A DNA stretch of 64,000 bases. Origin: Candidatus Omnitrophota bacterium. GTDB taxonomy: Bacteria > Omnitrophota > Gorgyraeia > 1-14-0-20-64-10. How positions within the stretch are numbered: position 1 is the first letter of the stretch; each line of letters starts with the position of its first letter. The DNA lies in contig JAHFFE010000001.1 in assembly GCA_023248155.1 (NCBI GenBank), forward strand, positions 212,873 through 276,872. Direction: 5' to 3'. The translations under genes were made by a program, and so were the position numbers. The notes beneath the pieces are model-generated. The model was not told the origin of the DNA. It saw only the letters and a program-made list of their open reading frames with translations, and did not search any database. Shown here piece by piece: positions 26,200 to 53,119 of the stretch.

Positions 26200-26736
26200 A
26201 TGAGGCAGACTTCTTCATTCAAGCGGCGCGGGCAGTCCGGTGTTTCGCTGCTGGAGTTGATTGTCGCCACGGCGATCGTCGGCATTGTCAGTTTAGCTGT
26301 CGCTACGATCTACACCACTGCCAACCGCTACATGCTTCAGGATTTCAATTCCTCTAATGCGCAGAGCGAAGCTTCGTTCGCGCTGGAGCATATCAAGAAA
26401 TTTGTGCAGTTGGCCACCGCGATTGACAATGCGACTCTGCCGGTTGGCGGAAATTCAAACGCGCTGCAGTTTACCTGGACGAATCGAGAACCTCCCAGCA
26501 CCGGCGCATTGGTTACGCGCACTTCCCGCTATGAAATCCAGGCCGGGAATTTGGTTTTTATACAAGATACTACGGTGGGTGCCGCGGAACAATTGGCGAG
26601 GGGAGTCTCGGCCATTGAGTTTACGCGTCCGTTGGCCGGAAGCATCGCGGTTGATTTGACCGTTAATGTCAACGCGGTTACCGGCACCCGGCAGCAGCGG
26701 CTTCAAACCACGGTGAATCCTCGAGGCGTGGCATAA
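26200..26736 (+). CDS. Prepilin-type N-terminal cleavage/methylation domain protein (type IV pilin / pseudopilin)
   Basis: Class III signal: KRRGQSG|VSLLELIVATAIVGIVSLAV with Glu at +5. Confidence 0.8.
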   Translation: MRQTSSFKRRGQSGVSLLELIVATAIVGIVSLAVATIYTTANRYMLQDFNSSNAQSEASFALEHIKKFVQLATAIDNATLPVGGNSNALQFTWTNREPPSTGALVTRTSRYEIQAGNLVFIQDTTVGAAEQLARGVSAIEFTRPLAGSIAVDLTVNVNAVTGTRQQRLQTTVNPRGVA

Positions 26737-26750
26737 AAGGAGAAAATAAT

Positions 26751-27281
26751 ATGCTTTCTACGCGCACATCGGAGCGCGGATCAGCGCTGGTGATTGCGAT
26801 GGCGGCCGCGGTGATTGTCTCGATCATCGTGGCGGTGGTGATGAATCTTTCCATCCGCCGGTTTGAACTGTCCGCGCAGCGCACCGACCACGAAGTGGCC
26901 AAGATGAGCAGTGAGGCGGGCTTGCAATATGTCTTCTCCCGGCTGGCCATCGATGACGCTGTTTTCGGAGCTGCGGTTCGGCTTAAAAGAACTTCGCTGG
27001 GGGCGGCAGCTGTTCCGTTGAATAACGCCGCCGCTGAATATGTGGTCACCTGTGACACGGCGCTGCCTGGGGGGTCCGATGAGGTGGATCAGCGCCTGCA
27101 TGTCGGCGCTAAGATCGATACGCAGGGCCCAGCCAGCCCGACGAACGGCCAATATGTCGGCGGCAAGCATGTGACGATTCGCGTACGGTTTTTGACGGCG
27201 AACGACTTTACGGCAAATCCGACTCTGGATGCGGCCCGGCCTTACCGGGTGAGGGTCGATACCAATTTCGCGGAGGGTTAA
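26751..27281 (+). CDS. PilX/GspK-like minor pseudopilin (N-terminal hydrophobic helix, no Glu+5)
   Basis: SERGSALVIAMAAAVIVSIIVAVVMNL N-terminal segment; position between two prepilin genes. Confidence 0.55.
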   Translation: MLSTRTSERGSALVIAMAAAVIVSIIVAVVMNLSIRRFELSAQRTDHEVAKMSSEAGLQYVFSRLAIDDAVFGAAVRLKRTSLGAAAVPLNNAAAEYVVTCDTALPGGSDEVDQRLHVGAKIDTQGPASPTNGQYVGGKHVTIRVRFLTANDFTANPTLDAARPYRVRVDTNFAEG

Positions 27282-27285
27282 ACCG

Positions 27286-27858
27286 ATGGGATCGCGCGAG
27301 AATCAAGAGGGCGTTTCGCTGCTGGAAGTGCTGATTTCCATGGTGATCATTACGATGGTGGCCGGCGGAATCATCACCGCGATGATCCAGAGCCGCCGCG
27401 TGACGATCCGTTCTTCGTCGGAACTCTCCACCGCGGGCCTGGTTTCGGAAGTTTCGGAAGCGCTGCGCTCGGCCGTCAACGGGCCGATTACCACCGGCCC
27501 ATTTACCGGATTTGATTTGACGAATCCTGGGATTTTTGCCGATGCCAATATGCAAAACCGTCCGGCCGGCGCTACCGCCGTTAACTCATTAATTCTGCCG
27601 GCTGATTTTAGAGATAAATTCCAAACCAGTGCCGGCACCGCTGCGACGATTGCCGGACATGGAGACGGGCGCTTGGTGGTGGTGGAGAACGCGCCAGTTG
27701 ACAACAACCCCGCCAACGGAACGATTGACGCGGCCGAGCTGGCTGCCGTCGATCTCGACGGAGACGGGCAGGCCGGCATCGATTTTGACAATGACGGCAT
27801 CACCGATTTGCGGCGCGTCCGCGTGAAAGTGAAATTTACCTCCCCGACATCCAGCTGA
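27286..27858 (+). CDS. Prepilin-type N-terminal cleavage/methylation domain protein (minor pilin)
   Basis: NQEG|VSLLEVLISMVIITMVAGGIITA with Glu at +5. Confidence 0.75.
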   Translation: MGSRENQEGVSLLEVLISMVIITMVAGGIITAMIQSRRVTIRSSSELSTAGLVSEVSEALRSAVNGPITTGPFTGFDLTNPGIFADANMQNRPAGATAVNSLILPADFRDKFQTSAGTAATIAGHGDGRLVVVENAPVDNNPANGTIDAAELAAVDLDGDGQAGIDFDNDGITDLRRVRVKVKFTSPTSS

Positions 27859-32338: not shown

Positions 32339-32374
32339 TATTTTTAGGGGGTCACTTTCTCACGGAGGTGTCTC

Positions 32375-34069
32375 ATGAAGCACAGTGTCGTTATTCCTCT
32401 GCTTGTCCTTGGAATTTTCGCCAACTATGCCTGGGCGGAAACCATCGAACTGGTCACTTATTATCCGACATCATCGAATGCCGGCGATCAACATCTCACT
32501 AGTTTAACCGTCGGCAATGCTTATCTAAACACGACACTGGCCGCCGGGCAGGCCTTGATCCAGGCCAGTTTGGGGATTGGTCCCGGGTTTGCGAATAACG
32601 AGCCGGCGGCTCCGACGATGCTGCAAGTGCAGGGTGTCGATGCTCAGGATTCAACAGCTCTATTTTTACCCGGCGCTGGAGGAACGATGAGCGTGGGGAT
32701 TGGCACAACGCCGGTTCTTGGAAGCGCTCTGGATGTTACCGGCGGAGACTTGTTTGTCCGGCAGACGGCCGGATCTGGAAACCATGTTCGGATCCGGGCT
32801 CCCTCCGATGCGAATACGGCCATTGAACTGCGCTCGGAAACGGCCGGCGGAAATCCGTACATTGATTTTGCTAATGACGCGGCAACCGATTTTGATATGC
32901 GCATTCAGTTAACCGGCAACGATGAGTTGCGCATTGACGGCGGGGCTCTTCAGGTGCGTCGGGAAGGGGGAGTCGATCAAACCGGCCAGCTGGCCCGGTA
33001 CACAAATGACGCGCAGCCGACCTCGCTATCTCTGCTGAAGGGCAGGAACACAGCAGCGGTCCCTTTCCGTCCTTCCCTTAATGATGGGTTGGGAATGATT
33101 CGTTTTCAGGGGGTTAATGTGGTTGGGCAGAATTATGACGGGGCCACGATTCAGGCTATTGCGTCGGCGAACTGGACCAATGCATCCGCGCCGGCCGATA
33201 TGGTTTTTTCCACCACGCCGTCTGGCGCCAACGGATCCGCGGAACGGATGCGGATTACGGATGACGGCCGAGTTTTGATTGGAACAACGGTTGTTCCCCC
33301 GACCGCGCCGACTACGCTGCTTGTGGCCCGGCGCGATGCCGATGAAATGGTGATGATGCGTGTCGAAAATCAGAATAATTCCGCGAACGCCGCCGCCCGC
33401 GTGTTTGCGGTTTCCCAGCAGGCCGCCACGCCAATCTCAATTGGAATGGATGCCTTCTCCCAGAATTTTAACACGACCACTTCATTAGGTGCTGCTGTTC
33501 CTGGGAATACGCTAATTGCTACCTTTGCCACTTTTGGGGCGATGGCTGCCAACCTGGGCAACCTGTTTATCGCGTCACGCGGACCCAACCAACGGATTGC
33601 ATTCCATACAGGAAATCTTGCTGTTGATGCGACCACCGAACGAATGCGGATTACCAACACCGGTCTTGTCGGGATTAATATCACAAATCCTACCTTCCGT
33701 TTACAATTACCCAACCTCGCTGTTGATTCAACGGGGCGCGGGCGCGCGAACGCATGGACAACCTACTCCTCCATTCGATGGAAAGAAAACATTACCTCAA
33801 TTGACCACCCCCTGGATAAGATTCAGGAACTTCGCGGTGTTTATTTTAATTGGAAAAAAGAACAAGGAGGCGTCCGGGATATTGGATTAATTGCCGAAGA
33901 AGTTGGCAAAATAATTCCGGAGGTTGTTTCTTATGAAGAGAACGGTAAAGATGCCAGTGGTATTACCTATGACCGATTGGTGGCTCTTTTAGTAGAGGGA
34001 ATCAAAGAGCTCAAGGTTGAGAATGATGCACTGAAGAAAAGAATTGATGATTTGGAGAAAAAATCATGA
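32375..34069 (+). CDS. Secreted fibre-like protein, paralog family (type-A N-term) with C-terminal intramolecular-chaperone (peptidase S74, endosialidase-chaperone-like) domain
   Basis: Signal peptide + AETIELVTYYPTS; C-terminus SSIRWKENITSIDHPLDKIQELRGVYFNWKKEQ...IGLIAEEV...YDRLVALLVEGIKELK...coiled coil matches the IMC/S74 domain of phage tail spikes. Confidence 0.85.
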   Translation: MKHSVVIPLLVLGIFANYAWAETIELVTYYPTSSNAGDQHLTSLTVGNAYLNTTLAAGQALIQASLGIGPGFANNEPAAPTMLQVQGVDAQDSTALFLPGAGGTMSVGIGTTPVLGSALDVTGGDLFVRQTAGSGNHVRIRAPSDANTAIELRSETAGGNPYIDFANDAATDFDMRIQLTGNDELRIDGGALQVRREGGVDQTGQLARYTNDAQPTSLSLLKGRNTAAVPFRPSLNDGLGMIRFQGVNVVGQNYDGATIQAIASANWTNASAPADMVFSTTPSGANGSAERMRITDDGRVLIGTTVVPPTAPTTLLVARRDADEMVMMRVENQNNSANAAARVFAVSQQAATPISIGMDAFSQNFNTTTSLGAAVPGNTLIATFATFGAMAANLGNLFIASRGPNQRIAFHTGNLAVDATTERMRITNTGLVGINITNPTFRLQLPNLAVDSTGRGRANAWTTYSSIRWKENITSIDHPLDKIQELRGVYFNWKKEQGGVRDIGLIAEEVGKIIPEVVSYEENGKDASGITYDRLVALLVEGIKELKVENDALKKRIDDLEKKS

Positions 34070-35433
34070 AGCGCGCAATTTTGTTGTTCACCGTTTTAGG
34101 GCTTGTTTCTAGTATCGCCTGGGCGGAAACCACAGAAATTGTTACCTATTATCCGACTACCGGCGGTAATAACGAACATTTAAACGATTTAACGGTAGGG
34201 CCGGGCTTTTTGGGAGAAAACCCCGACCCTGGCGAAGTGCTGATTGAAACGCGGCTTGGAATCGGAACTAATAATCCGCAGGAACAGATTCAGATCACGG
34301 GCAATTTAAGGCTTCCTGCCACCACCGCCGCGGGAGGTGTTCCTTCCGGCGGTGTTATTTTTTCTAATACAAACAGGTTTATTCACAATTTTGGGAGCGG
34401 CAATTTTTTCGCGGGGACCAACGCAGGCAATTTCACGCTGACGGGTTCTTCGAATGTTGGGATAGGCACTAACGCGATGCAGAGCCTGACGAACGGAATT
34501 CAGAATGTCGCCGTGGGACCTCGCGCCATGGAGAGCACGACCAGCGGGCAGAGGAATTCCGCGTTTGGCATGGAGAGTCTGAATAATAATACGACGGGCG
34601 GTTTGAACACAGCGCTGGGGCATAATACGCTTTTTTTTAATCAGACCGGATTTGATAACACCGCGGTAGGCTATCAGGCTTTGCTGAACACGACGGGCAG
34701 CGATAACGTGGCGGTGGGCCAAAACGCCGGATCGAATTTGTTGGCGAACGCGAACACGACCGGGTCGGGCAATACGTTTATAGGGACCCGATCGGGTTCC
34801 GGGGTGGCCGCGCAATTAACCAACGCGACCGCGCTTGGATTTGAAGCATTGGTCTCGGCCAGCAACGCGCTGGTGCTGGGCGGAACAGGCGCCAACGCGG
34901 TCAATGTGGGGATTGGCACGGAAACGCCGGCTCAGCGGCTTCATGTCGTGGGAACCGTGCAAATCGTAGATGGGACCCAGGCGAACGGAAGAGTGCTAAC
35001 CTCTGACGCCAACGGCGTAGCCAGCTGGCAGGCAGCCACTTCAGTGCCTGTTATCGCAAATCCTACATTGGCCGCACCGGTCTGGGTTCGGGTCGGGAAT
35101 AATATCCTTTTCGGGAACCAGGATCATGAATTCATGACCCGGTTCACGTTTGCCACCGCGGGAGGTGTCCGCCGCGTGCGGCTTACGGTGACGGCTCGAA
35201 ATGCCAACGATCAGCCGCCTGTCGGTACCGTCTTTAATCTGAATTCGCCCACATTCAGGGACGGTTGGGGTGGAAATAACGCGGGACCAGGAGGAGGGTA
35301 TACTCTCAACTGGATTCAGTTTTACACCCAAAATCCAGGAAACGGAAATCAGTTAACCGTCGTCGCTTTTGGAGAGGATGGCAGCAGTGGCTTTGGATCG
35401 ATTAATGCAAACGTTGATGTTTCGTATCAGTAA
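34066..35433 (+). CDS. Secreted fibre-like protein, paralog family (type-B N-term)
   Basis: MKRAILLFTVLGLVSSIAWA|ETTEIVTYYPTTGGNNEHLNDLTVGPGFLGENP...; NTAVG/NTTG repeats; start overlaps the upstream stop (ATGA). Confidence 0.85.
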   Translation: MKRAILLFTVLGLVSSIAWAETTEIVTYYPTTGGNNEHLNDLTVGPGFLGENPDPGEVLIETRLGIGTNNPQEQIQITGNLRLPATTAAGGVPSGGVIFSNTNRFIHNFGSGNFFAGTNAGNFTLTGSSNVGIGTNAMQSLTNGIQNVAVGPRAMESTTSGQRNSAFGMESLNNNTTGGLNTALGHNTLFFNQTGFDNTAVGYQALLNTTGSDNVAVGQNAGSNLLANANTTGSGNTFIGTRSGSGVAAQLTNATALGFEALVSASNALVLGGTGANAVNVGIGTETPAQRLHVVGTVQIVDGTQANGRVLTSDANGVASWQAATSVPVIANPTLAAPVWVRVGNNILFGNQDHEFMTRFTFATAGGVRRVRLTVTARNANDQPPVGTVFNLNSPTFRDGWGGNNAGPGGGYTLNWIQFYTQNPGNGNQLTVVAFGEDGSSGFGSINANVDVSYQ

Positions 35434-35500
35434 ATAAACGGAATTATTCGATTTGACCAGCGAAAATATATTTTTAGGCATGAAAGGTGAGTAGATTAAA

Positions 35501-36886
35501 GTGAAAGAATTATGGTTGTTTCTGGGTATATTTGGATTACTAATCAGCTCCGTTTGGGCGGAAACCACAGAAATTGTTACCTATTATCCAACCTCTGGCA
35601 GCAACGAACATGCCACCAGTTTGACGGTTGGTAATGATTATCTGAATACCGTGCTGGCCGACGGTCAGGCGTTGATTCAAACCAGTTTGGGGATTGGGAC
35701 CGGGTTTGGAGGTGGTGCGGGTAATTTGCTGGAGGTGCGTGGCGTTTCTGGGGTTACCAGTAATGCTCTGTTTTTAGCAGGCACGGGTATCGGCTCGAAC
35801 ATCCGGGTTGGGATCGGGGTTGCGGTTCCGAATGAGCAGCTGGAGATCTCCGGCAATTTTCGGCTTCCTCCGACGACAGCGGCCACCGGAATTATTTTCT
35901 CGGGCGCCAACCGGTTCATCCACAATTTTGGGACCAACAACTTCTTCGCCGGTGTGAACGCGGGCAATTTCACCCTGACGGGAACTGGAAATGTGGGGAT
36001 TGGCCCGCAAACTCTCCTAAGCCTCACCAGCGGTGTTCGAAATATTGCTATCGGAACGGACGCTCTTTTATCTAATAGAAGTGGAAGTGGAAATGTCGCG
36101 ATTGGCACTGGAACCATCAGTTTTAGCACGCTCGGCAGTGACAATGTCGCTATTGGCCGCGCTGCGTTGGCAAATGTAAGTACCGTGGGCGCTCTGTCCG
36201 GACAGAACAATGTTGCTATGGGTTCCACCGCCCTTGTGTTCAATACCACCGGTTCTGAAAATGTGGCGCTTGGTTTTCAGTCCGGCGTGACGGTCACCCA
36301 GGCCAATGCCAATACGACCGGTTCCAATAATACGTTTGTTGGATTTAATGCCGGTCCTGGAACAGCAACTCAGCTGAACAATGCCACCGCCCTTGGCGCC
36401 AACGCGCTGGTTTCGGCCAGTAACGCGCTGGTGTTGGGCGGCACCGGCGCCAATGCTGTGAATGTGGGGATTGGCACGGAAACGCCGGCTCAGCGGCTTC
36501 ATGTCGTGGGAACCGTGCGGATCGTGGACGGGACCCAGGCGAACGGAAGAGTGCTAACCTCTGACGCCAACGGCGTAGCCAGCTGGCAGGCGTCCGGCGC
36601 TGCGGGATTTCCGGCTCCGGATTACGACAGTGGATGGGTTACTTCCCAAAGCCCGGGCAATACCAAGACATATACGCATAACCTTGGAACATTAGAATAC
36701 ATGGTCTATATAGAAGGAAGAACCGTTTCCGGAGATCATCCCCCAGGCACGATTCATCAAGTGAATAACCCGGGAGGGACTGACGCGTCCTGGTTGGACA
36801 GCAAGAAAACAAATTCAGTCGTTGTGATGCGTCACACGGGAGACACAGACTGGGATGAGACCAGGGTAAGATGCTGGAGATGGTAA
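35501..36886 (+). CDS. Secreted fibre-like protein, paralog family (type-A N-term)
   Basis: GTG start with SD; ...VWA|ETTEIVTYYPTSGSNEHATSLTVGNDYLNTVLADGQALIQTSLGIG; shares a ~170-bp near-identical block with 34066 (NALVLGGTGANAVNVGIGTETPAQRLHVVGTV...). Confidence 0.85.
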   Translation: MKELWLFLGIFGLLISSVWAETTEIVTYYPTSGSNEHATSLTVGNDYLNTVLADGQALIQTSLGIGTGFGGGAGNLLEVRGVSGVTSNALFLAGTGIGSNIRVGIGVAVPNEQLEISGNFRLPPTTAATGIIFSGANRFIHNFGTNNFFAGVNAGNFTLTGTGNVGIGPQTLLSLTSGVRNIAIGTDALLSNRSGSGNVAIGTGTISFSTLGSDNVAIGRAALANVSTVGALSGQNNVAMGSTALVFNTTGSENVALGFQSGVTVTQANANTTGSNNTFVGFNAGPGTATQLNNATALGANALVSASNALVLGGTGANAVNVGIGTETPAQRLHVVGTVRIVDGTQANGRVLTSDANGVASWQASGAAGFPAPDYDSGWVTSQSPGNTKTYTHNLGTLEYMVYIEGRTVSGDHPPGTIHQVNNPGGTDASWLDSKKTNSVVVMRHTGDTDWDETRVRCWRW

Positions 36887-36918: not shown

Positions 36919-38274
36919 TTATTTCGTCTGGCCGGTGAATGTGAAATCGCGGATCAGCATGGCCGGCGCTACAACCGAACTAAATCCTTGCGCCGGGTCG
37001 GCCACGAGCCGCCGTTCTTTCGAGAGCGCGATCACCTGAGAAAATGCTTTTAAGACCGGCTGCGTGAACCGCAGTGTTTTCGCGGCGCCTACCACCTTGC
37101 CTTTCTCGACGATGAAAGTTCCGTCGCGCGTCAGACCCGTCATCAGCGCTTCCCGCGTATCGAGAAGTCCGCTGACATAATGGAACCGGGTGATCCAGAG
37201 CCCCCGGTCCATTTTTTTCAGCATCTCGGCGCGCGGTGTTTTGCCCGGGTCCACCAGCAAATGCGTGGCGATCGGTCCTTCCGCTTCGTCATAGGGCAGC
37301 GCGTGGCCGGTCGAGGGTTGATGGTACAGTTTGCCGTAATGGCTGTCGTAGACCAGCCGCTGCGCCCGGCCTTTCTCGATCAAGCCGACATTTTTTCGGG
37401 GGACCCCTTCGAAATCAAACGGCATCGAGAGACAAGCCGGATCGGCCGCGTCGTCGCGGATCGTGATGTTGTCGCCCATGATTTTGTCGCCGATCCGTCC
37501 TGCCATGAAACTTGATTTCTCGTAAAATTGTTTGGCGCCAAAACCGATAAAACTGAGCCACTCCACCAATTCCGCCACCGCCTCCGGTTCGATCAGCACC
37601 GTATATTTCCCGAGCGGGATCTTTTTTTGATTCCGGTTGCGCCGGCAATGATCGCTGGCCCGCTTGAGCAGTTCATCGGCATCCAGCGTTTCGGAGTCGC
37701 GGTACGATTGTGCCGCGAACCCGGATGATTTTCCGGAAGTCGCAACCAGGCGCAATCCTCCTGCGGTAAAAGGCTGATAGACAGCGAGTCCTCCTGATCC
37801 GACGACGGCCAGTTCGCTTTCTCCTGCGGTCGAGGATCCTGCCAGTTCCAGCCCGGTTTTTTCGGCGGTCAGCCAGAGATTTTTGAGAAGAGTAAGCCGT
37901 TCTTTCGGCTGCTGTTGGGCTGTTTGCGCGAAATGCGTTTGAAGCACAGGCAGAGGTTTTTTCAACGGATTGGTTTGGAATGACGCTGCCGGTGATTTGC
38001 CGGATAGTTTCGCGATTGCCAGCGCCGAATCAACGGCGCGGCGCAGAGCCTCTTTCGTCAGCGAAGAACAGGTAGCCACGCCGACGCGGCCATGCCAGCT
38101 GGTTTTTACCCAGACGGTAATATCCTGCTCAGCAAAGTTCTGATGAATCTTTCCGCTGGAGAACCGGAATATCGTTTGCTGTGAATGCTGGCAGGCGATC
38201 AGCGTCTGGTCGGCCTTCGAGTAACGCGCCGCCTGCTTCAATTCTGAAATCAGTCTTATTTTTCCGATCAGCAT
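36919..38274 (-). CDS. pmbA: TldD/PmbA-family metalloprotease (PmbA/TldE-like)
   Basis: 451 aa TldD/PmbA family, paired with tldD immediately upstream. Confidence 0.8.
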   Translation of the reverse strand: MLIGKIRLISELKQAARYSKADQTLIACQHSQQTIFRFSSGKIHQNFAEQDITVWVKTSWHGRVGVATCSSLTKEALRRAVDSALAIAKLSGKSPAASFQTNPLKKPLPVLQTHFAQTAQQQPKERLTLLKNLWLTAEKTGLELAGSSTAGESELAVVGSGGLAVYQPFTAGGLRLVATSGKSSGFAAQSYRDSETLDADELLKRASDHCRRNRNQKKIPLGKYTVLIEPEAVAELVEWLSFIGFGAKQFYEKSSFMAGRIGDKIMGDNITIRDDAADPACLSMPFDFEGVPRKNVGLIEKGRAQRLVYDSHYGKLYHQPSTGHALPYDEAEGPIATHLLVDPGKTPRAEMLKKMDRGLWITRFHYVSGLLDTREALMTGLTRDGTFIVEKGKVVGAAKTLRFTQPVLKAFSQVIALSKERRLVADPAQGFSSVVAPAMLIRDFTFTGQTK

Positions 38275-39722
38275 CAGCCGACCTGCACTTTCTCAAAGCG
38301 GGCCGGGGAAGCGCCATGGCCCACATGCATCACCTGGATCGGTTCTCCCTTGGCGCAGTTGGGAACGCCGTAGAGCCGCCATTCTTCTTTGCCGGTAATG
38401 CCGCTGCACGAGTTCCAGAATTCCGGCGTGATGCCGGTATAAACCGGATTTTTCAACGCCTGTCCCAATTTTCCGTTGCGGATCTCCCAGCCGATTTCGG
38501 TTCCGAACTGAAAGTTCAGCCGTTTATCGTCGATCGACCAGCTTTTGTTGGTCGCCAGTAAAATCCCTTTTTTCGTGTCGCCAATCAGGTCATCCAGCGT
38601 GCCGGTTCCGGGATCGAGGCTTACATTGGTCATCCGCACGATCGGCACGGCGTTCCATCCATCGGCGCGCATCGCTCCGGTTGAATGGCTGCCGATTTGC
38701 GCGGCGGTTTCCCTCGAGCTGAGATAGTTGACGAACCGGCCGTTCTGAATAATCGGCACGCGCTGGGCAGGCACACCCTCATCGTCGTAGCCGAATGTGC
38801 CGCAGCCTTTCGGCAGTGTGGCGTCGGCGGTAATATTAACGAGCCGGTTTCCGTAGCGGTAATGTCCCAGCGTGTCGGGCGTCAGAAAACTGCCGCCTGC
38901 GAATGAAAGTTCCATTCCCAGTGCGCGGTCCAGTTCGGTTGGATGCCCGCATGACTCATGCACCTGCAGAATCAGCTGATCCGGCATTAAAATCACGGTG
39001 GTTTTTCCGGAAGGGCATTCTTTGGCGCGCAGCAATGTGACCGCTTCCTGGCGCACCCGTTTTGCTTCGCCGACAAAATCGAGTGCTTTTACATATTCAT
39101 AACCGGCCTGCGCCAGCGAACAGGAATTTGCCGTCGGGAATGACCGTTTTTGCATCTCATTGCCGAGCACGGCGGTGGCTTCAATCATGCCGCCCGATTC
39201 GGTGATCAGCTGTTCGATCCAGGCCCCTTCGGTCGAGCAAAACAGTTTCTCGGTTTTATGGAATTCCAGTTTCGCGATCGCGCTGGCGATCTGCGGATTA
39301 TCCTTAAGCACCTGGCAGGTCCAGAGCAGGTAATCCAGTTTGCGCTGCAGTGGCACACGGAACGGGTCGATCTCCAAAGGAGTTTCGTAACGGCCGCGCG
39401 CCGGTTTCATCGGTCTTAAATGGGCCATTGGCGCGGTGGTCAGTGCTACGGCGCGCGCCATTTCGATGGCCCGGTCGGCGGTCTGCTTGAGTCCGCGCCG
39501 GTTAAAATGACAGGACGACGCGTGCCCCCAGGCCCCGTGGTCAAGTACGCGGATGAAAACACCTTCGCTGGCGCTCTGGCTGATATGCTGCGGCTGACCG
39601 TTTTGCACCACCAGCTCCTCTTTCAGCGCGTGGACAAAACGGAGATCTCCGTAACGGATGCCGCGCCGTTTGAGATAGGAAATAGTCTCGGAAAACAGGT
39701 TTTTGGGTTTGGAAGGAACCAT
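38274..39722 (-). CDS. tldD: TldD-family metalloprotease
   Basis: HESCGHPTELD zinc-binding motif; 482 aa. Confidence 0.85.
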   Translation of the reverse strand: MVPSKPKNLFSETISYLKRRGIRYGDLRFVHALKEELVVQNGQPQHISQSASEGVFIRVLDHGAWGHASSCHFNRRGLKQTADRAIEMARAVALTTAPMAHLRPMKPARGRYETPLEIDPFRVPLQRKLDYLLWTCQVLKDNPQIASAIAKLEFHKTEKLFCSTEGAWIEQLITESGGMIEATAVLGNEMQKRSFPTANSCSLAQAGYEYVKALDFVGEAKRVRQEAVTLLRAKECPSGKTTVILMPDQLILQVHESCGHPTELDRALGMELSFAGGSFLTPDTLGHYRYGNRLVNITADATLPKGCGTFGYDDEGVPAQRVPIIQNGRFVNYLSSRETAAQIGSHSTGAMRADGWNAVPIVRMTNVSLDPGTGTLDDLIGDTKKGILLATNKSWSIDDKRLNFQFGTEIGWEIRNGKLGQALKNPVYTGITPEFWNSCSGITGKEEWRLYGVPNCAKGEPIQVMHVGHGASPARFEKVQVG

Positions 39723-39780
39723 GGGAATTCATCTACCCTACGGGTTTTTAAGTCGGCTGTCAATGAGTGCCGGTATCATG

Positions 39781-39786
39781 TATACT
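39781..39786 (+). promoter_or_regulatory. GTATACT -10-like element upstream of fibre gene 39817
   Basis: GTATACT 39780-39786, then SD AGGAGG and ATG 39817. Confidence 0.35.
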
Positions 39787-39816
39787 TATTTTATAAATTC
39801 ACAGGAGGTGTTTTTT

Positions 39817-41364
39817 ATGAAGGTAAACGCTAGGTTTAGTGCCGCTGTTCCCGCCATCATCCTTCTCGTCTCAGTTATTTTTACCGGCATTGCCTGGGCC
39901 GAAACTGTTGAGTTAGTGACTTATTATCCAACATCGGCAAATAGCGGCGACCAGCATCTAACCAGTTTAACGGTGGGCAACGATTATTTGGCTACCACAC
40001 TGGCCAATGGCCAGGCATTGATCCAGACCAGCTTGGGGATTGGAACCGGGTTTGCCAACAACGAACCGGCGGCTCCGACGGTTTTGGAAGTACGCGGAGT
40101 GGCCGGTGATGCATCGCAGGCTCTGTTTCTGCCGGGTGCCGGCGGTACGATGAGCGTGGTGATCGGCCGGGACGGGGCGCCGGGGGCGGGAATCCCCGGC
40201 TCCGGTTTGTCGGTGGTCTCCACCAATGACGGCGTAGACATACGCGGGATAAGTGTTTTGCATTCCAGTAACGGTATCCAGGGAGGCATCCTAAATCTCC
40301 TTAAAAGCCGGGCGGCCGGTGCGGTGGTGCAGGCCGGGGATTATGCGGGCGGCGTGGGTTTCTGGTTTTTCAACAACGGCGAGGGGGGCATTTCCGAATC
40401 CGGATACACGCAGTCCGCGGCTATCTGGAGCGCCGTCAACAACGCGACTCCCGGGTCCGAAGCGGGGCATCTCGAGTTCTACACGACGAACGCCGGCGTG
40501 TCGTCGGAGAAGATACGGATCGCCGCGAACGGCAACGTGGGGATTGGAACGGCGGCACCCGGACAAACATTAACCGTTAATGGCACTCTGGGTATCTTGG
40601 AAGGAGGCGCCAATCCAACCGACCACACGATTTTTCAGGGAGGCACCCAGACAGGCGATATTACATACTCTCTCCCGGCGGCCCAGGGAGCTGCCGACAC
40701 CGTTCTTGCAAATAATGGGGCCGGTGTTCTCTCGTGGAGTGCTTCGGCGGGAGGAGGTGTTCCAAACACCGTCGTTGTTTTCAATGCTTCGGGAAACTGG
40801 ACGGCTCCTGCTGGAGTGACAAGAATTAATGTCCAGGTTTGGGGCGGCGGCGGCGGTGGCGGTGGAGCCACTAGTTGTTCGGGTTACGGCAGCGGCGGGG
40901 GCGGCGGCGGTTACGCCGAATCCATTCTTGCGGTTACACCGGGGACAACCTATACCGTTACGGTGGGTGCCGGAGGAACCGGAGGCGCTAGTATCGCGGG
41001 TACCGCCGGAGGCACATCGTTTTTTAATACCGCCGCGATCGTTTCGGCGACTGGCGGTGCTGGAGGACTAAGAGACTGCGAAGCCACGGCCGTCAACTCT
41101 ATTGGGGGAAATGGTCTAGGCACCATCACCATCACGGGCGCTTCCGGAGACATGGGCGGGAACACGAGCAGCTCTGTTCCAAACGGAGGCGATTCTCCTC
41201 TGGGCGGTAGTGGAGGGGATGGAGGTGCTAATAGCGGAACCCCGGCGCAGGGAAATGGTCGCGCAGGCATTATTCCTGGCGGTGGTGGCGGCGGTGCGGG
41301 CGGCACGGGCACAAGTGGTATAGGCGGCAATGGAGCACACGGAAGAGTAGTGATAAGGTTCTGA
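39817..41364 (+). CDS. Secreted fibre-like protein, paralog family (type-A N-term) with Gly-rich C-terminal region
   Basis: MKVNARFSAAVPAIILLVSVIFTGIAWA|ETVELVTYYPTSANSGDQHLTSLTVGNDYL...; C-term VWGGGGGGGGATSCSGYGSGGGGGGY...TVGAGGTGGAS. Confidence 0.85.
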   Translation: MKVNARFSAAVPAIILLVSVIFTGIAWAETVELVTYYPTSANSGDQHLTSLTVGNDYLATTLANGQALIQTSLGIGTGFANNEPAAPTVLEVRGVAGDASQALFLPGAGGTMSVVIGRDGAPGAGIPGSGLSVVSTNDGVDIRGISVLHSSNGIQGGILNLLKSRAAGAVVQAGDYAGGVGFWFFNNGEGGISESGYTQSAAIWSAVNNATPGSEAGHLEFYTTNAGVSSEKIRIAANGNVGIGTAAPGQTLTVNGTLGILEGGANPTDHTIFQGGTQTGDITYSLPAAQGAADTVLANNGAGVLSWSASAGGGVPNTVVVFNASGNWTAPAGVTRINVQVWGGGGGGGGATSCSGYGSGGGGGGYAESILAVTPGTTYTVTVGAGGTGGASIAGTAGGTSFFNTAAIVSATGGAGGLRDCEATAVNSIGGNGLGTITITGASGDMGGNTSSSVPNGGDSPLGGSGGDGGANSGTPAQGNGRAGIIPGGGGGGAGGTGTSGIGGNGAHGRVVIRF

Positions 41365-41384: not shown

Positions 41385-42773
41385 GTGACGCAGGCGGTTA
41401 ACAGGGTATTTCTCCAATTGCCTGGAGAGCAAATCAGTTCTCTGGCGCGTCGGCGCCGGTCGCTGGCGTTAAAACACCAGATGGTAGTTTATAATTCCCG
41501 CAAGCAGCCCCACCAGATCGATCTTCAGATGCGGCCCTGGGTGATGACGCGCGTGCAAGAATCATTTTTTTATAAAACCTGCCGGCTTCTGAATTCCGCG
41601 CTCGATAGAATCGTTCCTCTCTATTTGCACAATCCGCAGGTTCGCCAGATCGTTCCGTTGGAGCCGTATGAAGACGAATGGCTGCGTGCCGCCAACGCCC
41701 GCAAACTGCAAACGCCGCGAACGGTTTTCGGCCGGATCGACGCGACCGCTACCTTCGCGCATCCGCGCTGGAAGGACGATTTCTGGTTTTTGGAGCCGAA
41801 TGAAATCGGCATCGGCGGTGTTTATTACATCTACGGCACGATGGCGATGGCCAATGAATGGGTCGTGCCGCTGCTGAAAGAAAAAATCCCGGCGTTTCAG
41901 CCGCGAATGGCCAACGATCCGCAGCGGCTGCTGTTTCTGCTGATGCGCCGGCACGCGCGCGCCATTGGCCGGCCATTAAAGCGCGTGGCATTGGTCGAAG
42001 ATTGTTCAGAGCCGGAAGGGACCGCCGAATTTTCTTCGGTAGTCCAATCGTTCCGGCGATGGGGACTGGACGCGTTTGTGGCCGACCCTCGTCAGGTGAA
42101 AAGTCGTCGCGGCGAAATTACCGTGCGCGGGAAACCGGTTGATCTGATTTACCGCGATACGGAACTGACCGAGATGGCCGAAATGGGCGGCCGCGATTTT
42201 TCAAAAAAATTCTCGGGCATGCGCGAAGCGTTCATCCAAAACCGCGGGATCTCTTCGCTGGCCGGCGAGTTCGATCACAAGTCATGCTGGGAATTGTTTA
42301 CCAATCCGCAATTTGGCCATTATTTTACGCCTGCCCAGCGCCGGCTTTTCCAGAAACATATTCTTTGGACACGGTTACTGTGGGAACGGACCACGACCGA
42401 TTGGAACGGAAAATCGGTCGATCTCGTTGCCTGCACTCAAAAGAACCGCGCACGCTTGGTGCTGAAGCCAAACCGCGCGTACGGCGGAGAAGGGGTTTTA
42501 TTCGGTTGGGCTGTTTCGCAGAGCCGATGGGATCGCGCGCTGGCAACGGCGCTGCGGGAACCGTCCCAATGGATTGTTCAGCGCGCCGCGCGCGTGCATG
42601 AAGAATTATTTCCGGAGATCCGTCCCAATGGCCGCGTAAAACTGGAACCATTTTTTGCGGTAACCGGTTTTGCCGCTACCCCCGACGGCATGGCGGTTCT
42701 GGGCCGGTTTTCAGAAGAATCGGTAGTGAATGTTTCCCGCCGCGGCGGATTAATTCCGGTTTTTCGATTGTGA
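41385..42773 (+). CDS. Hypothetical protein, possibly circularly-permuted ATP-grasp / glutathionylspermidine-synthase-like
   Basis: 462 aa, GTG start; weak resemblance (IGIGGVYYIYG, RAYGGEGVLFGW ATP-grasp-like strands); assignment is tentative. Confidence 0.35.
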   Translation: MTQAVNRVFLQLPGEQISSLARRRRSLALKHQMVVYNSRKQPHQIDLQMRPWVMTRVQESFFYKTCRLLNSALDRIVPLYLHNPQVRQIVPLEPYEDEWLRAANARKLQTPRTVFGRIDATATFAHPRWKDDFWFLEPNEIGIGGVYYIYGTMAMANEWVVPLLKEKIPAFQPRMANDPQRLLFLLMRRHARAIGRPLKRVALVEDCSEPEGTAEFSSVVQSFRRWGLDAFVADPRQVKSRRGEITVRGKPVDLIYRDTELTEMAEMGGRDFSKKFSGMREAFIQNRGISSLAGEFDHKSCWELFTNPQFGHYFTPAQRRLFQKHILWTRLLWERTTTDWNGKSVDLVACTQKNRARLVLKPNRAYGGEGVLFGWAVSQSRWDRALATALREPSQWIVQRAARVHEELFPEIRPNGRVKLEPFFAVTGFAATPDGMAVLGRFSEESVVNVSRRGGLIPVFRL

Positions 42774-42785: not shown

Positions 42786-44300
42786 ATGAGCGATAAAAAA
42801 TCTTTCACAAAAATAGTCCTTGGGTTTTTAGCAATAGGGCTTGTTGCCGGCATCGCCTGGGCCGAAACGACCGAAATTGTGACCTATTATCCTACCAGCG
42901 GCGGTGGCGGCGCCGATCCGCAGGTAAACTCGATCAGGGTCGGAAACGGCTATGCAGGAACTGCTGCTCCGGGGAATGGAATAGCGCGCATCGAAACATC
43001 TCTCGGGATCGGTCTGGCGGGACTACCCACTCAACAGATTGAAATTACCGGTAATTTTCAGTTGCCGGCCACGACGGCTCCGGGAGGTATCCTTGCCGGG
43101 GGCGCTATTTTGTCCAATGGCAACAGGTTCATTCACAATTTCGGATCGAACAATTTTTTTGCGGGTGTGAACGCCGGTAACTTTACCATGACCGGTGGTA
43201 CGAACACGGCGGTTGGGGCTACTGCTTTGCGTGCCAACACTACCGGTGGCGGTAATACGGCTGTCGGTCAAAGTGCTTTGGCGAGCAATACCACCGGTCC
43301 TTCAAATACCGCTATCGGAATTGCTGCGCTCACTGCCAATATTAGCGGCGGCAACAATGTTGCTATTGGACGGACGGCGCTTTTCCTTAATAATAATGGT
43401 TCCTTCAACACCGCGGTCGGGAACCAGTCTCTTGCAAACAACACGGTTTCCGACAATACAGCCATTGGTTTTGGAGCTATGCAACTCAATACGACCGGCA
43501 CTGACAACACCGCCGTGGGGTTCTCTGCTCTGCTGAGTAATACCACGGGCGTCACCAATGCCGCCGTCGGCATGAACACCCTTCTCAACAACACCATTGG
43601 CGGCGGCAACGCCGCGCTGGGGACCAGTGCTCTTCTCAGCAACACCACCGGCATAAATAACACGGCGGTCGGCAGTGCTGCAGGTGGTATTAACACCACC
43701 GGTTCAAACAATGTTTTTATTGGGCAAATAGCACAACCAACTGTCGGGAACCTTACTAATGCCATTGCCATCGGTTCCAACGCGCAAGTTGGCGCCAGCA
43801 ACAGTATGGTTCTGGGTGGAACCGGCGCCAATGCGGTCAATGTCGGTATTGCTGTGACTACGCCGAGAACGCCGGCTCCGAACGCGGCCGCCGGCAACCT
43901 GGATGTAAATGATGTTTGGGTAAGAAGTTTGAACGCCGGGGCGGGAGCCTGGCTGAGTCAGCAGGCCGGAGGTGGAGCTCAAATGGTGACGGGCAGTTAT
44001 GTCGGTAATGGAATCAATGCCCGTCGAACCATAGCGGTTGCCGGCGTTACGGCGGCCACGCCGATTCGTTTCTTGACGGTAATTGGAAATTGGCGCAATA
44101 CGACTTCTGCGATGACCAATATTAAAACAGCGACCATGGCAGGAACGCTGAATTATCATTGGGCGCCTGCGCTGGCAACCTATGAGCTTACCGTCGGCGG
44201 TCCCGCGATTCAATTTGAGGCGACCGGGTTTAGTTTTCTGCATGATGCGGGCACCATCAATCAGAATGGGCAGACGTACCACTACATCGCCTATTTGTAA
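42786..44300 (+). CDS. Secreted fibre-like protein, paralog family (type-B N-term)
   Basis: ...GIAWA|ETTEIVTYYPTSGGGGADPQVNSIRVGNGY...; long run of NTAVG/NTTG 14-15-aa repeats. Confidence 0.85.
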   Translation: MSDKKSFTKIVLGFLAIGLVAGIAWAETTEIVTYYPTSGGGGADPQVNSIRVGNGYAGTAAPGNGIARIETSLGIGLAGLPTQQIEITGNFQLPATTAPGGILAGGAILSNGNRFIHNFGSNNFFAGVNAGNFTMTGGTNTAVGATALRANTTGGGNTAVGQSALASNTTGPSNTAIGIAALTANISGGNNVAIGRTALFLNNNGSFNTAVGNQSLANNTVSDNTAIGFGAMQLNTTGTDNTAVGFSALLSNTTGVTNAAVGMNTLLNNTIGGGNAALGTSALLSNTTGINNTAVGSAAGGINTTGSNNVFIGQIAQPTVGNLTNAIAIGSNAQVGASNSMVLGGTGANAVNVGIAVTTPRTPAPNAAAGNLDVNDVWVRSLNAGAGAWLSQQAGGGAQMVTGSYVGNGINARRTIAVAGVTAATPIRFLTVIGNWRNTTSAMTNIKTATMAGTLNYHWAPALATYELTVGGPAIQFEATGFSFLHDAGTINQNGQTYHYIAYL

Positions 44301-47287: not shown

Positions 47288-50746
<3,459 letters not shown>

Positions 50747-50754
50747 TTTTCGAG

Positions 50755-50760
50755 TATACT
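50755..50760 (+). promoter_or_regulatory. GTATACT -10-like element upstream of fibre gene 50779
   Basis: GAGTATACT then 18 nt to ATG. Confidence 0.3.
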
Positions 50761-53085: not shown

Positions 53086-53106
53086 CAAAAATAACCAATT
53101 TTATGG

Positions 53107-53112
53107 CATACT
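53107..53112 (+). promoter_or_regulatory. CATACT -10-like element 7 nt before ATG 53120 (leaderless-type); shares ATACTT(A)CCTTATAT with the 1524 element
   Basis: GCATACTTCCTTAT-ATG compared with GTATACTTACCTTATATCG-ATG at 1523. Confidence 0.35.
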
Positions 53113-53119
53113 TCCTTAT

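Follow-up and report, generated by a model that had tools for sequence, protein, structure and literature searches.

The window, the 64-kb stretch of DNA analyzed here, encodes a family of ten Sec-exported proteins that resemble phage tail fibers, share one N-terminal module, end in mosaic C termini, and lie outside any prophage context. A preliminary description of this DNA had proposed such a paralogous family, and its main claims hold. Because the likeness to phage tail fibers goes together with a single short module found only in Omnitrophota-type bacteria, these proteins are probably cell surface fibers that grip host or prey cells. We consider it reasonably probable that they are lineage-specific secreted fibers of an Omnitrophota-type bacterium, most likely a repertoire of cell surface adhesins.

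Results

All ten open reading frames (ORFs), each with a Sec signal peptide, were found at the coordinates given beforehand, and a six-frame motif scan of the window recovered exactly the same ten, with no occurrence beyond them (Table 1; copies are referred to below by their first coordinate). Amino acid identity between pairs of copies ranged from 35 to 86% and was mosaic in blocks. For instance, 34066 is 86% and 82% identical to 57336 and 61614, respectively, over residues 1 to 300, and beyond that point it is unrelated to them.

Table 1. Fiber genes of the window, numbered from its first nucleotide
Gene	Position	Strand	Features
Fiber paralogue 1, 459 aa	16216..17595	-	Signal peptide, N-module nt 17374-17514, unique C-terminal tip
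Fiber paralogue 2, 564 aa	32375..34069	+	Signal peptide, N-module 32435-32581, type A shaft, Peptidase_S74, C-terminal coiled coil
Fiber paralogue 3, 455 aa	34066..35433	+	Signal peptide, N-module 34123-34266, GNLRLPATTA adaptor, six 17-aa repeats
Fiber paralogue 4, 461 aa	35501..36886	+	Chimera: type A N terminus with 45-aa insert module, adaptor, 17-aa repeats
Fiber paralogue 5, 515 aa	39817..41364	+	Signal peptide, N-module 39898-40044, type A start, Gly_rich_2
Fiber paralogue 6, 504 aa	42786..44300	+	Signal peptide, N-module 42861-43013, adaptor, about eight 17-aa repeats, variant junction
Fiber paralogue 7, 532 aa	50779..52377	+	Divergent N-module (ADTVELVTYYPTE; 50863-51030), extra 100-aa insert, 17-aa repeats
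Fiber paralogue 8, 502 aa	57336..58844	+	Signal peptide, N-module 57411-57554, beta-solenoid shaft, junction, PTL_trimer, tip
Fiber paralogue 9, 635 aa	58866..60773	+	Signal peptide, N-module 58944-59096 without LGIG, nineteen 17-aa repeats, Peptidase_S74, coiled coil
Fiber paralogue 10, 500 aa	61614..63116	+	Signal peptide, N-module 61689-61832, shaft, junction, PTL_trimer, own tip type

The signal peptides of the ten copies are 20 to 29 residues long and show a basic n-region, a hydrophobic core, a c-region ending in A/V-x-A, and E/D at position +1; neither a lipobox cysteine nor a twin-arginine motif was present in them. The signal peptides first proposed were thus recovered, but not all of them end in A(W/F)A, as two c-regions read VWA and VSA. 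The mature N terminus is nearly invariant and forms a 49-aa module, ET.E.VTY(Y/F)P...(T/R)VG...G..LIE..LGIG, and positions -3/-1 and +1 to +10 were almost fixed across 139 members. The AET...YYPT core, earlier called invariant, is nearly but not strictly so, with ADTVELVTYYPTE in 50779, YFPT in 57336, and YYPSS in 58866. Instead of the two N-terminal subtypes initially distinguished, we saw at least three or four: ...TSLTVGN.YLNT in 16216, 32375, 35501, and 39817; ...NDLTVGPG(F/Y)LGENP in 34066, 57336, and 61614; ...DPQVNSIRVG.GYAG in 42786 and 58866; and a divergent form in 50779 on its own. The N-module had zero matches to Pfam, NCBIfam, and PHROG models, in keeping with the earlier statement that it belongs to no named family, and the matches precomputed with a newer Pfam release for P0001, P0003, and P0047 included none on it. 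AF2 modeled the module with low confidence (pLDDT 59 in one model and about 50 in another).

Behind the module, seven of the ten copies carry beta-solenoid repeats, 3 to 19 in each. The repeat unit is 17 residues, with a period of 51 nt as seen in 58866, and not 14 to 15 residues as had been described. In the AF2 model of 57336, the shaft reached a pLDDT of 80 to 92 with one strand per 17 aa, and the tip was all-beta; the shaft is thus predicted with confidence to be a beta-solenoid. Copy 16216 has a nonrepeat "type A" shaft in common with 32375 over about 300 aa. The junction reported as conserved, NALVLGGTGANAV(N/S)VGIGTETP, is so in four copies, and variant forms occur in two more. In 34066, the repeats are followed by the NALVLGGTGANAVNVGIGTETP junction and then by a unique knob (aa 326 to 455), and the same junction is found in 35501 with 89% nucleotide identity (36379-36591 versus 34821-35033), there followed by a small unique tip at the end. 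The fibers gave strong PHROG matches to tail fiber, tail spike, and baseplate families, among them matches of residues 212 to 337 of 16216 to tail fiber families and of 39817 to PHROG 863, "tail fiber assembly" (2.3e-34), and a BFVD search returned 40 viral fiber-like matches at E<=1e-3. The PTL_trimer of 57336 is a precomputed PF26696 match. Bacterial fiber bodies combining adaptor, repeats, junction, and PTL_trimer are widespread as well, with more than 3,231 matches, including Bacteroidota and Terriglobia. Since similar bodies are thus found in thousands of proteins of nonpredatory phyla, the fiber body alone is no sign of predation.

The ten C-terminal tips are mutually unrelated by BLASTP. 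Pfam found Peptidase_S74 in 32375 and 58866 and Gly_rich_2 in 39817 and no match in the C termini of the remaining copies, where 50779 has a coiled-coil tail that closes its tip; S74, Gly-rich, coiled-coil, and otherwise unrelated C termini had all been predicted. The two Peptidase_S74 intramolecular chaperones (PF13884) lie at aa 465 to 518 of 32375 (SSIRWK; E=5.6e-14, 52.6 bits) and at aa 520 to 573 of 58866 (SDARLK; E=3.8e-15, 56.4 bits), against a Pfam gathering cutoff of 22. Both retain the catalytic serine with a lysine at +5, at residues 465 and 520, and the chaperone probably cleaves itself off at S-x4-K in the two copies. Copy 58866 also matched the chaperone of the phage S16 long tail fiber (PDB 6F45; E=1.5e-6), with the SDxRxK region aligned. 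The Gly_rich_2 domain of 39817 (PF21722; aa 327 to 515, E=5.4e-15) passes the Pfam gathering threshold, and 57336 ends in a beta-sandwich tip (aa 346 to 502). Among 104 family members, S74 was found in 30, and other tips matched dockerin, BclA_C, Collar, H_lectin, Gp53-like_C, and Peptidase_G2; a single member matched YadA_head. A Foldseek-type search of the tip folds gave weak jelly-roll matches at best, none at E<=1e-3.

Among 1.84 billion representative proteins, only 218 matched the N-module, and in all of them it directly followed the signal peptide, at about residues 20 to 80. In genomes it was found only in Omnitrophota metagenome-assembled genomes (MAGs), some of which were submitted under the name "Planctomycetia"; each MAG has several copies, at up to about 10 loci. 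Looser cousins (T.YYP.P.G.Y) are present in other lineages.

A new observation made here is that fiber genes occupy conserved slots directly behind housekeeping genes in many genomes. In the window these genes are sucD, lptG, bioA/D, ubiD, and ubiA, and elsewhere tatC, purE, and accA; the species carrying the slots have housekeeping proteins 50 to 83% identical at the amino acid level. Copy 32375 opens a tandem trio behind sucD, its stop overlapping the next start (ATGA), and this slot is kept in L004, L005, L022, L034, L066, L085, and L097. Copy 16216 lies between udg and lptG, and the comF-lptF-lptG-fiber-udg arrangement recurs in L028 and L003. The slot of 50779, between bioA/D and ubiE, is kept in L017, L032, L039, and L082; that of 57336, which starts directly behind ubiD, in L007, L027, and L055; and the ubiA-fiber-ubiX slot of 61614 also in L093. 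At one and the same slot, the tips vary from genome to genome. The tip type of 50779 occupies the sucD slot in L034, that of 42786 recurs in L005, L022, and P0008, and that of 61614 is common to P0046 at 75%. A same-strand gene lies upstream in 63 of 77 copies, with a median of 88 nt from its stop to the AET motif. Promoter and terminator scans performed no better than shuffles, and cotranscription with the upstream genes is therefore suggested by spacing alone.

Discussion

The closest known system is that of the mosaic adhesive trimer (MAT) fibers of Bdellovibrio bacteriovorus, a superfamily of 21 genes in strain HD100 (PDB 8OND, 8OL4, and 8ONF). According to Caulton et al. (2024, PMC10769870), the predator displays these fibers on its surface, and binding to glycans of the prey surface was demonstrated for one of them. 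This precedent lowers the novelty of the present family somewhat. Both families are multicopy (21 genes in HD100 versus 10 in 64 kb) and have a Sec signal peptide, followed by a conserved N-terminal module that is common to all paralogues and without a known homologue, a phage-like body with GNVGIGT..P...L motifs, and mosaic tips of S74 (SDxxxK) and non-S74 types, and both kinds of bearer prey on or parasitize other microbes, or are suspected to do so. They differ in phylum and in length, the Omnitrophota fibers being about half as long (455 to 635 aa versus roughly 920 to 1150 aa for the MAT members with lengths given, PMC10769870). The N-modules are alike in position and differ in length, with 49 aa here and about 130 beta-rich residues in MAT. 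Unlike in MAT, the shaft is mostly a regular 17-aa solenoid and the genes sit in conserved housekeeping-operon slots. The family profile (alignment A6) matched 8OL4/8ONF at E=1.7e-4 and 8OND (Bd2133) at E=6.9e-3, in each case through the short GNVGIGT..P..L.V motif only, and 8OND ranked 20th by Foldseek (E=0.022).

The best reading of these data appears to be that the fibers are MAT-like surface adhesins of a host-dependent nanobacterium, their N-terminal module being a new anchor or sorting element. Sec would export them, and signal peptidase I would cleave behind AxA, exposing the near-invariant mature N terminus ET(I/V/T)E(L/I)VTYYP as the first strand of the 49-aa module. This module may be the cell-proximal end, which would either tether the fiber to an envelope component or serve as a recognition element for outer membrane crossing or attachment; no outer membrane export route was evident for the main family. 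The chain behind it would fold into a phage-type fiber, probably trimeric, with a 17-residue beta-solenoid or the alternative nonrepeat shaft carrying the GIGT..P...L junction motifs and the PTL_trimer module, and the variable C-terminal tips would differ in the ligands that they recognize on surfaces or on other cells. The conserved N-module, adaptor, and junction may have been the recombination sites through which the repertoire diversified, and its expression may come by read-through from the surrounding housekeeping operons.

The Omnitrophota form an uncultured, widespread phylum, and its ultra-small bacteria are suspected of living on other microbes. Attention has so far been on their giant proteins (PMC10066038; bioRxiv 10.1101/2023.11.21.568195), and they have been proposed to be host-dependent nanobacteria (PMC10066038). 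A compact repertoire of phage-like receptor-binding fibers, if real, would give them a concrete recognition system, whose tip ligands could lead to host prediction. If this holds, there would be two cases, this one and Bdellovibrio MAT, in which bacteria employ phage fiber architecture for cell-cell recognition, which would suggest a general solution among predatory and parasitic bacteria. The invariant N terminus could offer a handle on the anchoring or export machinery, and ET.E.VTYYP a simple sequence marker for the lineage. Fixed slots in housekeeping operons combined with swappable tips are furthermore an unusual organization for a contingency-type gene family.

Two alternatives would make the family something other than a set of cellular proteins from separate genes. 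The fibers could be remnants or components of a prophage, a tailocin, or a tail-like particle whose other genes lie beyond the window, as the strong PHROG matches, the S74 chaperones, and a shaft fold common with viral proteins would suggest. We regard this as highly unlikely: a cleavable Sec signal peptide on all copies is at odds with cytoplasmic virion assembly, the 64 kb contain no gene for capsid, terminase, tail tube, sheath, or integrase, and the conserved slots are found in species as divergent as indicated above. Moreover, a Pfam scan of neighboring ORFs of at least 150 aa detected no phage structural or integrase gene, all those with a match being housekeeping genes, and the N-module was absent from 2.9 million viral contigs. 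An identity as phage virion tail fibers was rejected on these grounds, and the earlier view that the proteins are cellular fibers is supported by the viral-contig result, the housekeeping-operon slots, and the Omnitrophota-only range. The chance that the copies are collapsed or chimeric assembly artifacts of one or a few genes is vanishingly small. DNA repeats and common blocks, which reach at most about 90% nucleotide identity, could mislead an assembler, but this idea was discarded because the copies are only 35 to 86% identical at the amino acid level and clearly mosaic; their ten tips are unrelated, unique housekeeping genes flank each copy, dozens of unrelated contigs carry fibers in these slots, and a separate, independent ENA assembly contig carries two fiber copies and pmbA in the order of the window (34066, 35501, pmbA).

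Other alternatives concern what cellular fibers would do and how they are held. They might be the cell's own envelope or matrix fibers (S-layer-like, a glycocalyx scaffold, or involved in biofilm formation or aggregation), with tip variation reflecting drift or an immune-like evasion of phages and grazers in place of host or prey recognition. Placement behind housekeeping genes suggests constitutive expression, homologous fiber bodies are frequent among free-living organisms, Bacteroidota and Terriglobia included, and host dependence is presumed for the source genome. We nevertheless consider this explanation unlikely, since ten unrelated tips in 64 kb, tip swapping at the same slot between genomes, and receptor-binding-type tip domains (H_lectin, Collar, BclA_C, and S74-capped) resemble phage receptor-binding proteins or MAT adhesins and not scaffolds. 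Alternatively, a type II secretion system (T2SS) or a type IV pilus-like pseudopilus could have the fibers as its substrates or as adhesins at its tip, with the N-terminal strand docking on minor pseudopilins, which we hold to be rather doubtful. In two separate lineages, fibers with cousin N termini (AEEVTITTYYPAPEGVYDELR...VGIGT; AEDVKITTSYPSPYGVYQEL) lie inside T2SS/pilin operons: L033 has gspF-fiber-fiber-gspG/H/I/J/K-pilMNO with two further fibers ahead, and L096 has gspF, six pilin genes, two minor pilins, and then two fibers. The cousin module occupies the matching position and can be aligned with the 49-aa profile over its full length (18 to 24 bits), but this homology falls below database-wide significance (E about 4), and a third cousin context, L035, has no pilin/T2SS genes. 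In 91 loci with 108 fiber ORFs, no pilin/T2SS gene was detected adjoining main-family fibers, except in the window and L085, where three pseudopilin-like genes, ppil1-3 (26200-27858), head a same-strand array followed by gltA, mdh, sucCD, and the fibers; T2SS-like loci are also reported to be prominent in Omnitrophota. A pseudopilus would refine the anchoring step of the adhesin reading and does not oppose it. We put forward, as a tentative proposal, that the ET.E.VTYYP module is a new Omnitrophota sorting or anchoring signal that docks phage-type fibers on an envelope partner dedicated to them, which could be a T2SS/T4P-like pseudopilus, the fibers being host- or prey-recognition organelles, with each genome holding a repertoire of swappable tips in fixed housekeeping-operon slots.

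Three further groups of proteins resemble the adhesin candidates described here. Phage tail fibers and tailspikes with S74 (the endosialidase CIMCD type; S16 gp37, PDB 6F45; PHROGs 4636, 6002, 23837, and 9942) have similar shaft repeats, junction motifs, S74 domains that bear the Ser-Lys motif, and tips that are exchanged as modules, whereas the Omnitrophota fibers have cleavable Sec signal peptides, a cellular N-module where a domain for attachment to the virion or baseplate would be, no phage genes around them, and no viral-contig counterpart of that module. Trimeric autotransporter adhesins (type Vc, YadA family) are likewise secreted and repeat-rich, and the Omnitrophota fibers are probably trimeric with adhesive heads, as these are; JGI labels one distant match a "trimeric autotransporter adhesin." Their polarity is opposite, however: they are anchored by a C-terminal beta-barrel and have an N-terminal head, while the Omnitrophota fibers are conserved at the N-terminal end and variable at the C-terminal one. 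No C-terminal YadA-like anchor domain was found in the ten copies at E<=0.1 or among the families matched by the 104 members. Finally, the PTL_trimer (PF26696)/S74 fiber-like proteins of Bacteroidota, Terriglobia, and others share the adaptor (GNLRLPPTTA..G.I.SG..RFIHNFG), the 17-aa repeats, the junction, and the PTL_trimer module but carry other, lineage-specific N termini, ET.E.VTYYP being confined to the Omnitrophota-type lineage.

Ten paralogous fibre genes encode proteins with Sec signal peptides

A six-frame scan of the whole window for the AE[TS].E.VTYYP-type motif recovered exactly 10 ORFs, the same ten that the preliminary description had listed; the copies are named here by their start coordinates. 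Pairwise identity among them ranged from ~35% to 86% by BLASTP, with the similarity arranged in blocks, and the longest DNA repeats were ~90% identical across 300 to 600 nt. Two copies and the flanking pmbA were reproduced in an independent ENA assembly. The divergence of the copies, their unique flanks, and independent assemblies rule out an assembly artefact, and the ten copies are real paralogues.

Each copy starts with a predicted Sec signal peptide of 20 to 29 aa, with a basic n-region, a hydrophobic core, and an A/V-x-A c-region; neither a lipobox cysteine nor a twin-arginine motif was found in the ten signal peptides. After predicted cleavage the first residue is E, or D in a single copy, and T-x-E-(I/L)-V-T-Y-(Y/F)-P comes next.

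Features of the window and of the compared loci from other genomes (L numbers); a slot is a fixed position behind or between housekeeping genes occupied by fibre gene(s)
Feature	Position or locus	Strand	Remarks
Fibre copy 16216	16216-17595	minus	~45-aa extra module, non-repeat shaft
Fibre copy 32375	32375-34069	plus	~45-aa extra module, non-repeat shaft, Peptidase_S74 and coiled coil
Fibre copy 34066	34066-35433	plus	junction shared with 35501 (89% nt identity)
Fibre copy 35501	35501-36886	plus	~45-aa extra module; junction as in 34066
Fibre copy 39817	39817-41364	plus	~45-aa extra module
Fibre copy 42786	42786-44300	plus	tip type also in L005, L022
Fibre copy 50779	50779-52377	plus	coiled-coil tip type also in L034
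Fibre copy 57336	57336-58844	plus	PTL_trimer module before knob; AF2-modelled
Fibre copy 58866	58866-60773	plus	Peptidase_S74 tip and coiled coil
Fibre copy 61614	61614-63116	plus	PTL_trimer module before knob
Slot sucD, fibre(s), pmbA/tldD	L004, L005, L022, L034, L066, L085, L097		
Slot comF-lptF-lptG, fibre, udg	L028, L003		
Slot bioA/D, fibre(s), ubiE	L017, L032, L039, L082		
Slot ubiD, fibre	L007, L027, L055		
Slot ubiA, fibre, ubiX	L093		
Three pseudopilin-like genes	26200-27858		between glycogen debranching enzyme gene and gltA; two with N_methyl motifs (GVSLLELIVA, GVSLLEVLIS)
Cousin fibre families	L033 1244-8996; L096 8840-11016; L035 2059-6203		other lineages, GC 40-50%
tldD/pmbA pair and circularly permuted ATP-grasp-like gene	36919-39722 and 41385-42773	minus (pair)	adjoin fibre slots; also kept beside them in L034, L046, L060, L085
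Extended -10-like element TG(T)ATACT	~32340-32355; ~39775-39790; ~50745-50760		ahead of 32375, 39817, 50779
Mobile/defence-type genes	L034 14474-15070; L034 1368-2513; L014 1625-2785; L096 1497-4229		
First large ORF	1542-7091		1849 aa; WD40 and FHA domains
Second large ORF	53057-55864		935 aa; no Pfam match; between ubiE and ubiD

The N-module is confined to Omnitrophota-type genomes

The conserved segment right behind the signal peptide (N-module) comprises 49 residues, opened by the ETxE(I/L)VTY(Y/F)P strand. Of the columns in its consensus, AETtEiVTYYPtsgg..eh.nsLTVG.gY....p..G.aLIEt.LGIG, 10 are invariant in the ten copies and 9 more nearly so. The failure of the preliminary description to assign it to a named family was borne out by searches of Pfam, NCBIfam, and PHROGs, none of which holds a model of it; precomputed results of a newer Pfam release likewise gave no matches for copies recognisable only by N-module and shaft.

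Searched exhaustively with HMMER, 1.84 billion representative proteins gave only 218 matches to the 49-position profile at E ≤ 1e-3, 99 of them at E ≤ 1e-10. The module lies at ~residues 20 to 80, straight behind the signal peptide, in essentially all of the matches listed. Across 139 of the matched proteins there is next to no variation at positions -1 (A), +1 (E), +2 (T), +4 (E), and +6 to +10 (VTYYP). When a single genome of each of 185,579 species was scanned, the module turned up at 30 loci; every one belongs to a MAG labelled Candidatus Omnitrophota or "uncultured Planctomycetia", and one MAG may have as many as ~ten, frequently arranged in tandem. A homologue search with a 52-aa profile returned only 9 short fragments, with "Candidatus Omnitrophota" naming, and the window's housekeeping proteins are 60 to 83% identical to those of Omnitrophota-labelled MAGs, which places the window in this lineage. 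The module was not found in 2.9 million viral contigs. An AF2 monomer of the N-terminal 125 aa, built on a 22-sequence alignment, reached a pLDDT of 58.7, too low for a fold search; in the full-length model of copy 57336 the N-module stood at ~50.

Phage-like shafts and unrelated tips follow the N-module

Downstream of the N-module, the ten proteins are mosaic. Four copies carry an extra ~45-aa module (..L.V.G.....ALFLPGAGGT.S.GIG), followed in 16216 and 32375 by a common non-repeat shaft of ~300 aa. An adaptor, GN(L/F)RLP.TTA..G.I.S...RFIHNFG..NFFAG.NAGN, is present in seven copies and leads into 3 to 19 repeats, whose measured period is 17 residues (51 nt) and not the 14 to 15 residues initially proposed. 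Four copies share the junction NALVLGGTGANAV(N/S)VGIGTETP, and two more have a variant form; between 34066 and 35501 its nucleotide identity is 89% despite differing N-terminal halves and tips.

In PHROGs, shafts and tips matched tail-spike, tail-fibre, and virion-structural families, and the N-terminal ~100 aa had no match. The AF2 model of copy 57336 predicts an all-beta tip and, with confidence (pLDDT 80 to 92), a beta-solenoid shaft with one strand per 17 residues. In BFVD, this model found 40 viral fibre-like proteins at E ≤ 1e-3, 25 to 34% identical to it along the shaft. Foldseek against the PDB gave nothing at E ≤ 1e-3, and its weak jelly-roll and depolymerase matches are a hint of an all-beta tip, no more. 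The body of adaptor, repeats, and junction had >3,231 matches in Bacteroidota, Terriglobia, and others, with other N-termini in front; the fibre body is of a known kind.

No two of the ten C-terminal tips are related. The S74, Gly-rich, and coiled-coil tips noticed earlier were all recovered: two copies have a Peptidase_S74 intramolecular chaperone followed by a coiled coil (Pfam E = 5.6e-14 and 3.8e-15), one a Gly_rich_2 tip, and one a coiled-coil end. The S-x4-K motifs are SSIRWK (32375) and SDARLK (58866); SDARLK lines up with gp37 of phage S16 (PDB 6F45). The PTL_trimer modules (PF26696, precomputed) precede different knobs, and the remaining tips had no Pfam match. S74 is the terminal domain in 30 of 104 N-module proteins; dockerin, Peptidase_G2, BclA_C, phage Collar, H_lectin, Gp53-like_C, and YadA_head each occur in one or a few, and ~60 had no Pfam domain.

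Among characterised systems, the Bdellovibrio mosaic adhesive trimer (MAT) superfamily comes closest: its 21 paralogues carry signal peptides and form trimeric phage-like fibres with S74 or non-S74 tips. Their invariant N-terminal domain of ~130 aa has no PDB homologue and is proposed to lie next to the predator surface, on which members are displayed; for one of them, binding to prey glycans was demonstrated (PMC10769870). The Omnitrophota fibres have in common with MAT the multiple paralogues, signal peptide, and S74 or non-S74 tips, together with an analogous conserved N-terminal segment and a possibly related phage-like fibre body. The profile of the Omnitrophota fibres matched two MAT structures in the PDB (8OL4/8ONF, E = 1.7e-4; Bd2133, 8OND, E = 6.9e-3) via the short GNVGIGT..P...L.V motif only.

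Fibre genes occupy conserved slots among housekeeping genes

All remaining window ORFs of at least 150 aa with a Pfam match are housekeeping genes (enolase, PTS, pgi, metK, ahcY, udg, lptF/G, the TCA genes gltA-mdh-sucCD, tldD/pmbA, biotin synthesis, and ubiE/D/A/X). No phage or mobile-element gene was found among them, in keeping with the cellular context described at the outset. The fibre genes are wedged in between, mostly on the same strand and with very short spacers; the stop codon of 32375 overlaps the start of 34066 (ATGA).

In a comparison with 91 related loci (108 fibre ORFs in all), we found that the window's fibre positions are also filled by fibres in other genomes. Recurrent upstream neighbours beyond the window's gene set are housekeeping genes too (tatC, ccsA, btuR, purE, accA, mqnC). 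The upstream gene was on the same strand in 63 of 77 cases, and its stop codon lay a median of 88 nt from the AET motif, of which the signal peptide takes 60 to 90 nt, implying operon-like coupling. Promoter and terminator scans did not rise above shuffled expectation. Fibre number and type per slot vary among genomes: the sucD slot holds one S74 and two knob fibres in the window; in L034 its three fibres all have the 50779-type coiled-coil tip, and in L005 and L022 the 42786-type tip occurs there. Conserved positions with varying fibres imply that the slots are old and their contents shuffled. What is new is the N-module, its limitation to Omnitrophota-type genomes, and the way the genes are organised in slots.

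Several minor features accompany the slots. The extended -10-like element precedes three copies and a weaker one precedes 42786, the remaining copies abutting the upstream gene; a consensus promoter scan did not exceed shuffles. The proximity of tldD/pmbA and the ATP-grasp-like gene (462 aa) is probably plain synteny. In relatives, fibre slots or pilin operons occasionally adjoin an IS200-type Y1 transposase gene, genes of the AAA_14/DUF4143 type, or an AbiEi/AbiEii pair, which could contribute to cassette turnover.

Proposed function and relation to pseudopili

The family's members have signals for Sec export, a mature N-terminus that is nearly invariant and specific to the lineage, phage-type shafts, mosaic tips of the receptor-binding type, and genes embedded in operons. 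In characterised proteins, S74 and PTL_trimer modules belong to trimeric fibres. By analogy, we infer that the proteins would form trimeric fibres held to the cell envelope by the N-module, with the variable tips facing outward and binding other cells or surfaces. Maturation of the two S74 copies would proceed by self-cleavage, and new specificities may arise from recombination at conserved blocks. The signal peptides, gene context, absence from viral contigs, and conserved slots contradict an origin from a prophage or tailocin. Nor are the proteins trimeric autotransporters, which have the opposite polarity and a C-terminal anchor that is missing here. A purely structural role in the envelope fits the tip diversity poorly, and we consider it improbable.

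Fibres with looser, related N-termini (cousins) bear on how the fibres might be anchored or exported. Each cousin family has its own invariant N-terminus directly behind the signal peptide: AEEVTITTYYPAPEGVYDELR..KMGIGP.YY..SLI.E..VGIGT, AEDVKITTSYPSPYGVYQEL, or ADSLTLTTYYPAP.GAYDRLRL (longer form, ADSLTLTTYYPAPxGAYDRLRLVPR). The AEEVTITTYYPAPEGVYDELR type aligned end to end with the 49-aa profile at 18 to 24 bits only. In two of the three contexts examined, cousins lie within T2SS/pilin operons, ordered as two fibres, gspF, two fibres, gspG-K, and pilMNO in L033 and as gspF, six pilin genes, two minor pilins, and two fibres in L096. The window's pseudopilin-like genes, for their part, stand at the head of a run of genes on one strand whose last members are the three sucD-slot fibres; this array is syntenic in L085. 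Both observations point to a possible pseudopilus link to anchoring or export; apart from this array, however, no pilin/T2SS genes were found in the 91 loci adjoining fibres of the main family, those with the N-module, and we therefore keep the link as a hypothesis only, rather doubtful at present.

Omnitrophota have been proposed to be host-dependent nanobacteria (PMC10066038). Literature searches found nothing on this fibre family in Omnitrophota or on PF26696/PTL_trimer, and the Omnitrophota literature found discusses giant proteins and T2SS-like loci, not the fibres; the family is real and apparently undescribed.

Two further large ORFs of the window have "...ALRP(T/L)G.EE" in their N-terminal part, and both contain the repeated pentapeptide (A/T)GQE(E/K), six times in the first and twice in the second, which is inserted among the ubi genes. 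The pentapeptide motif resembles a signature of linkers or processing sites.
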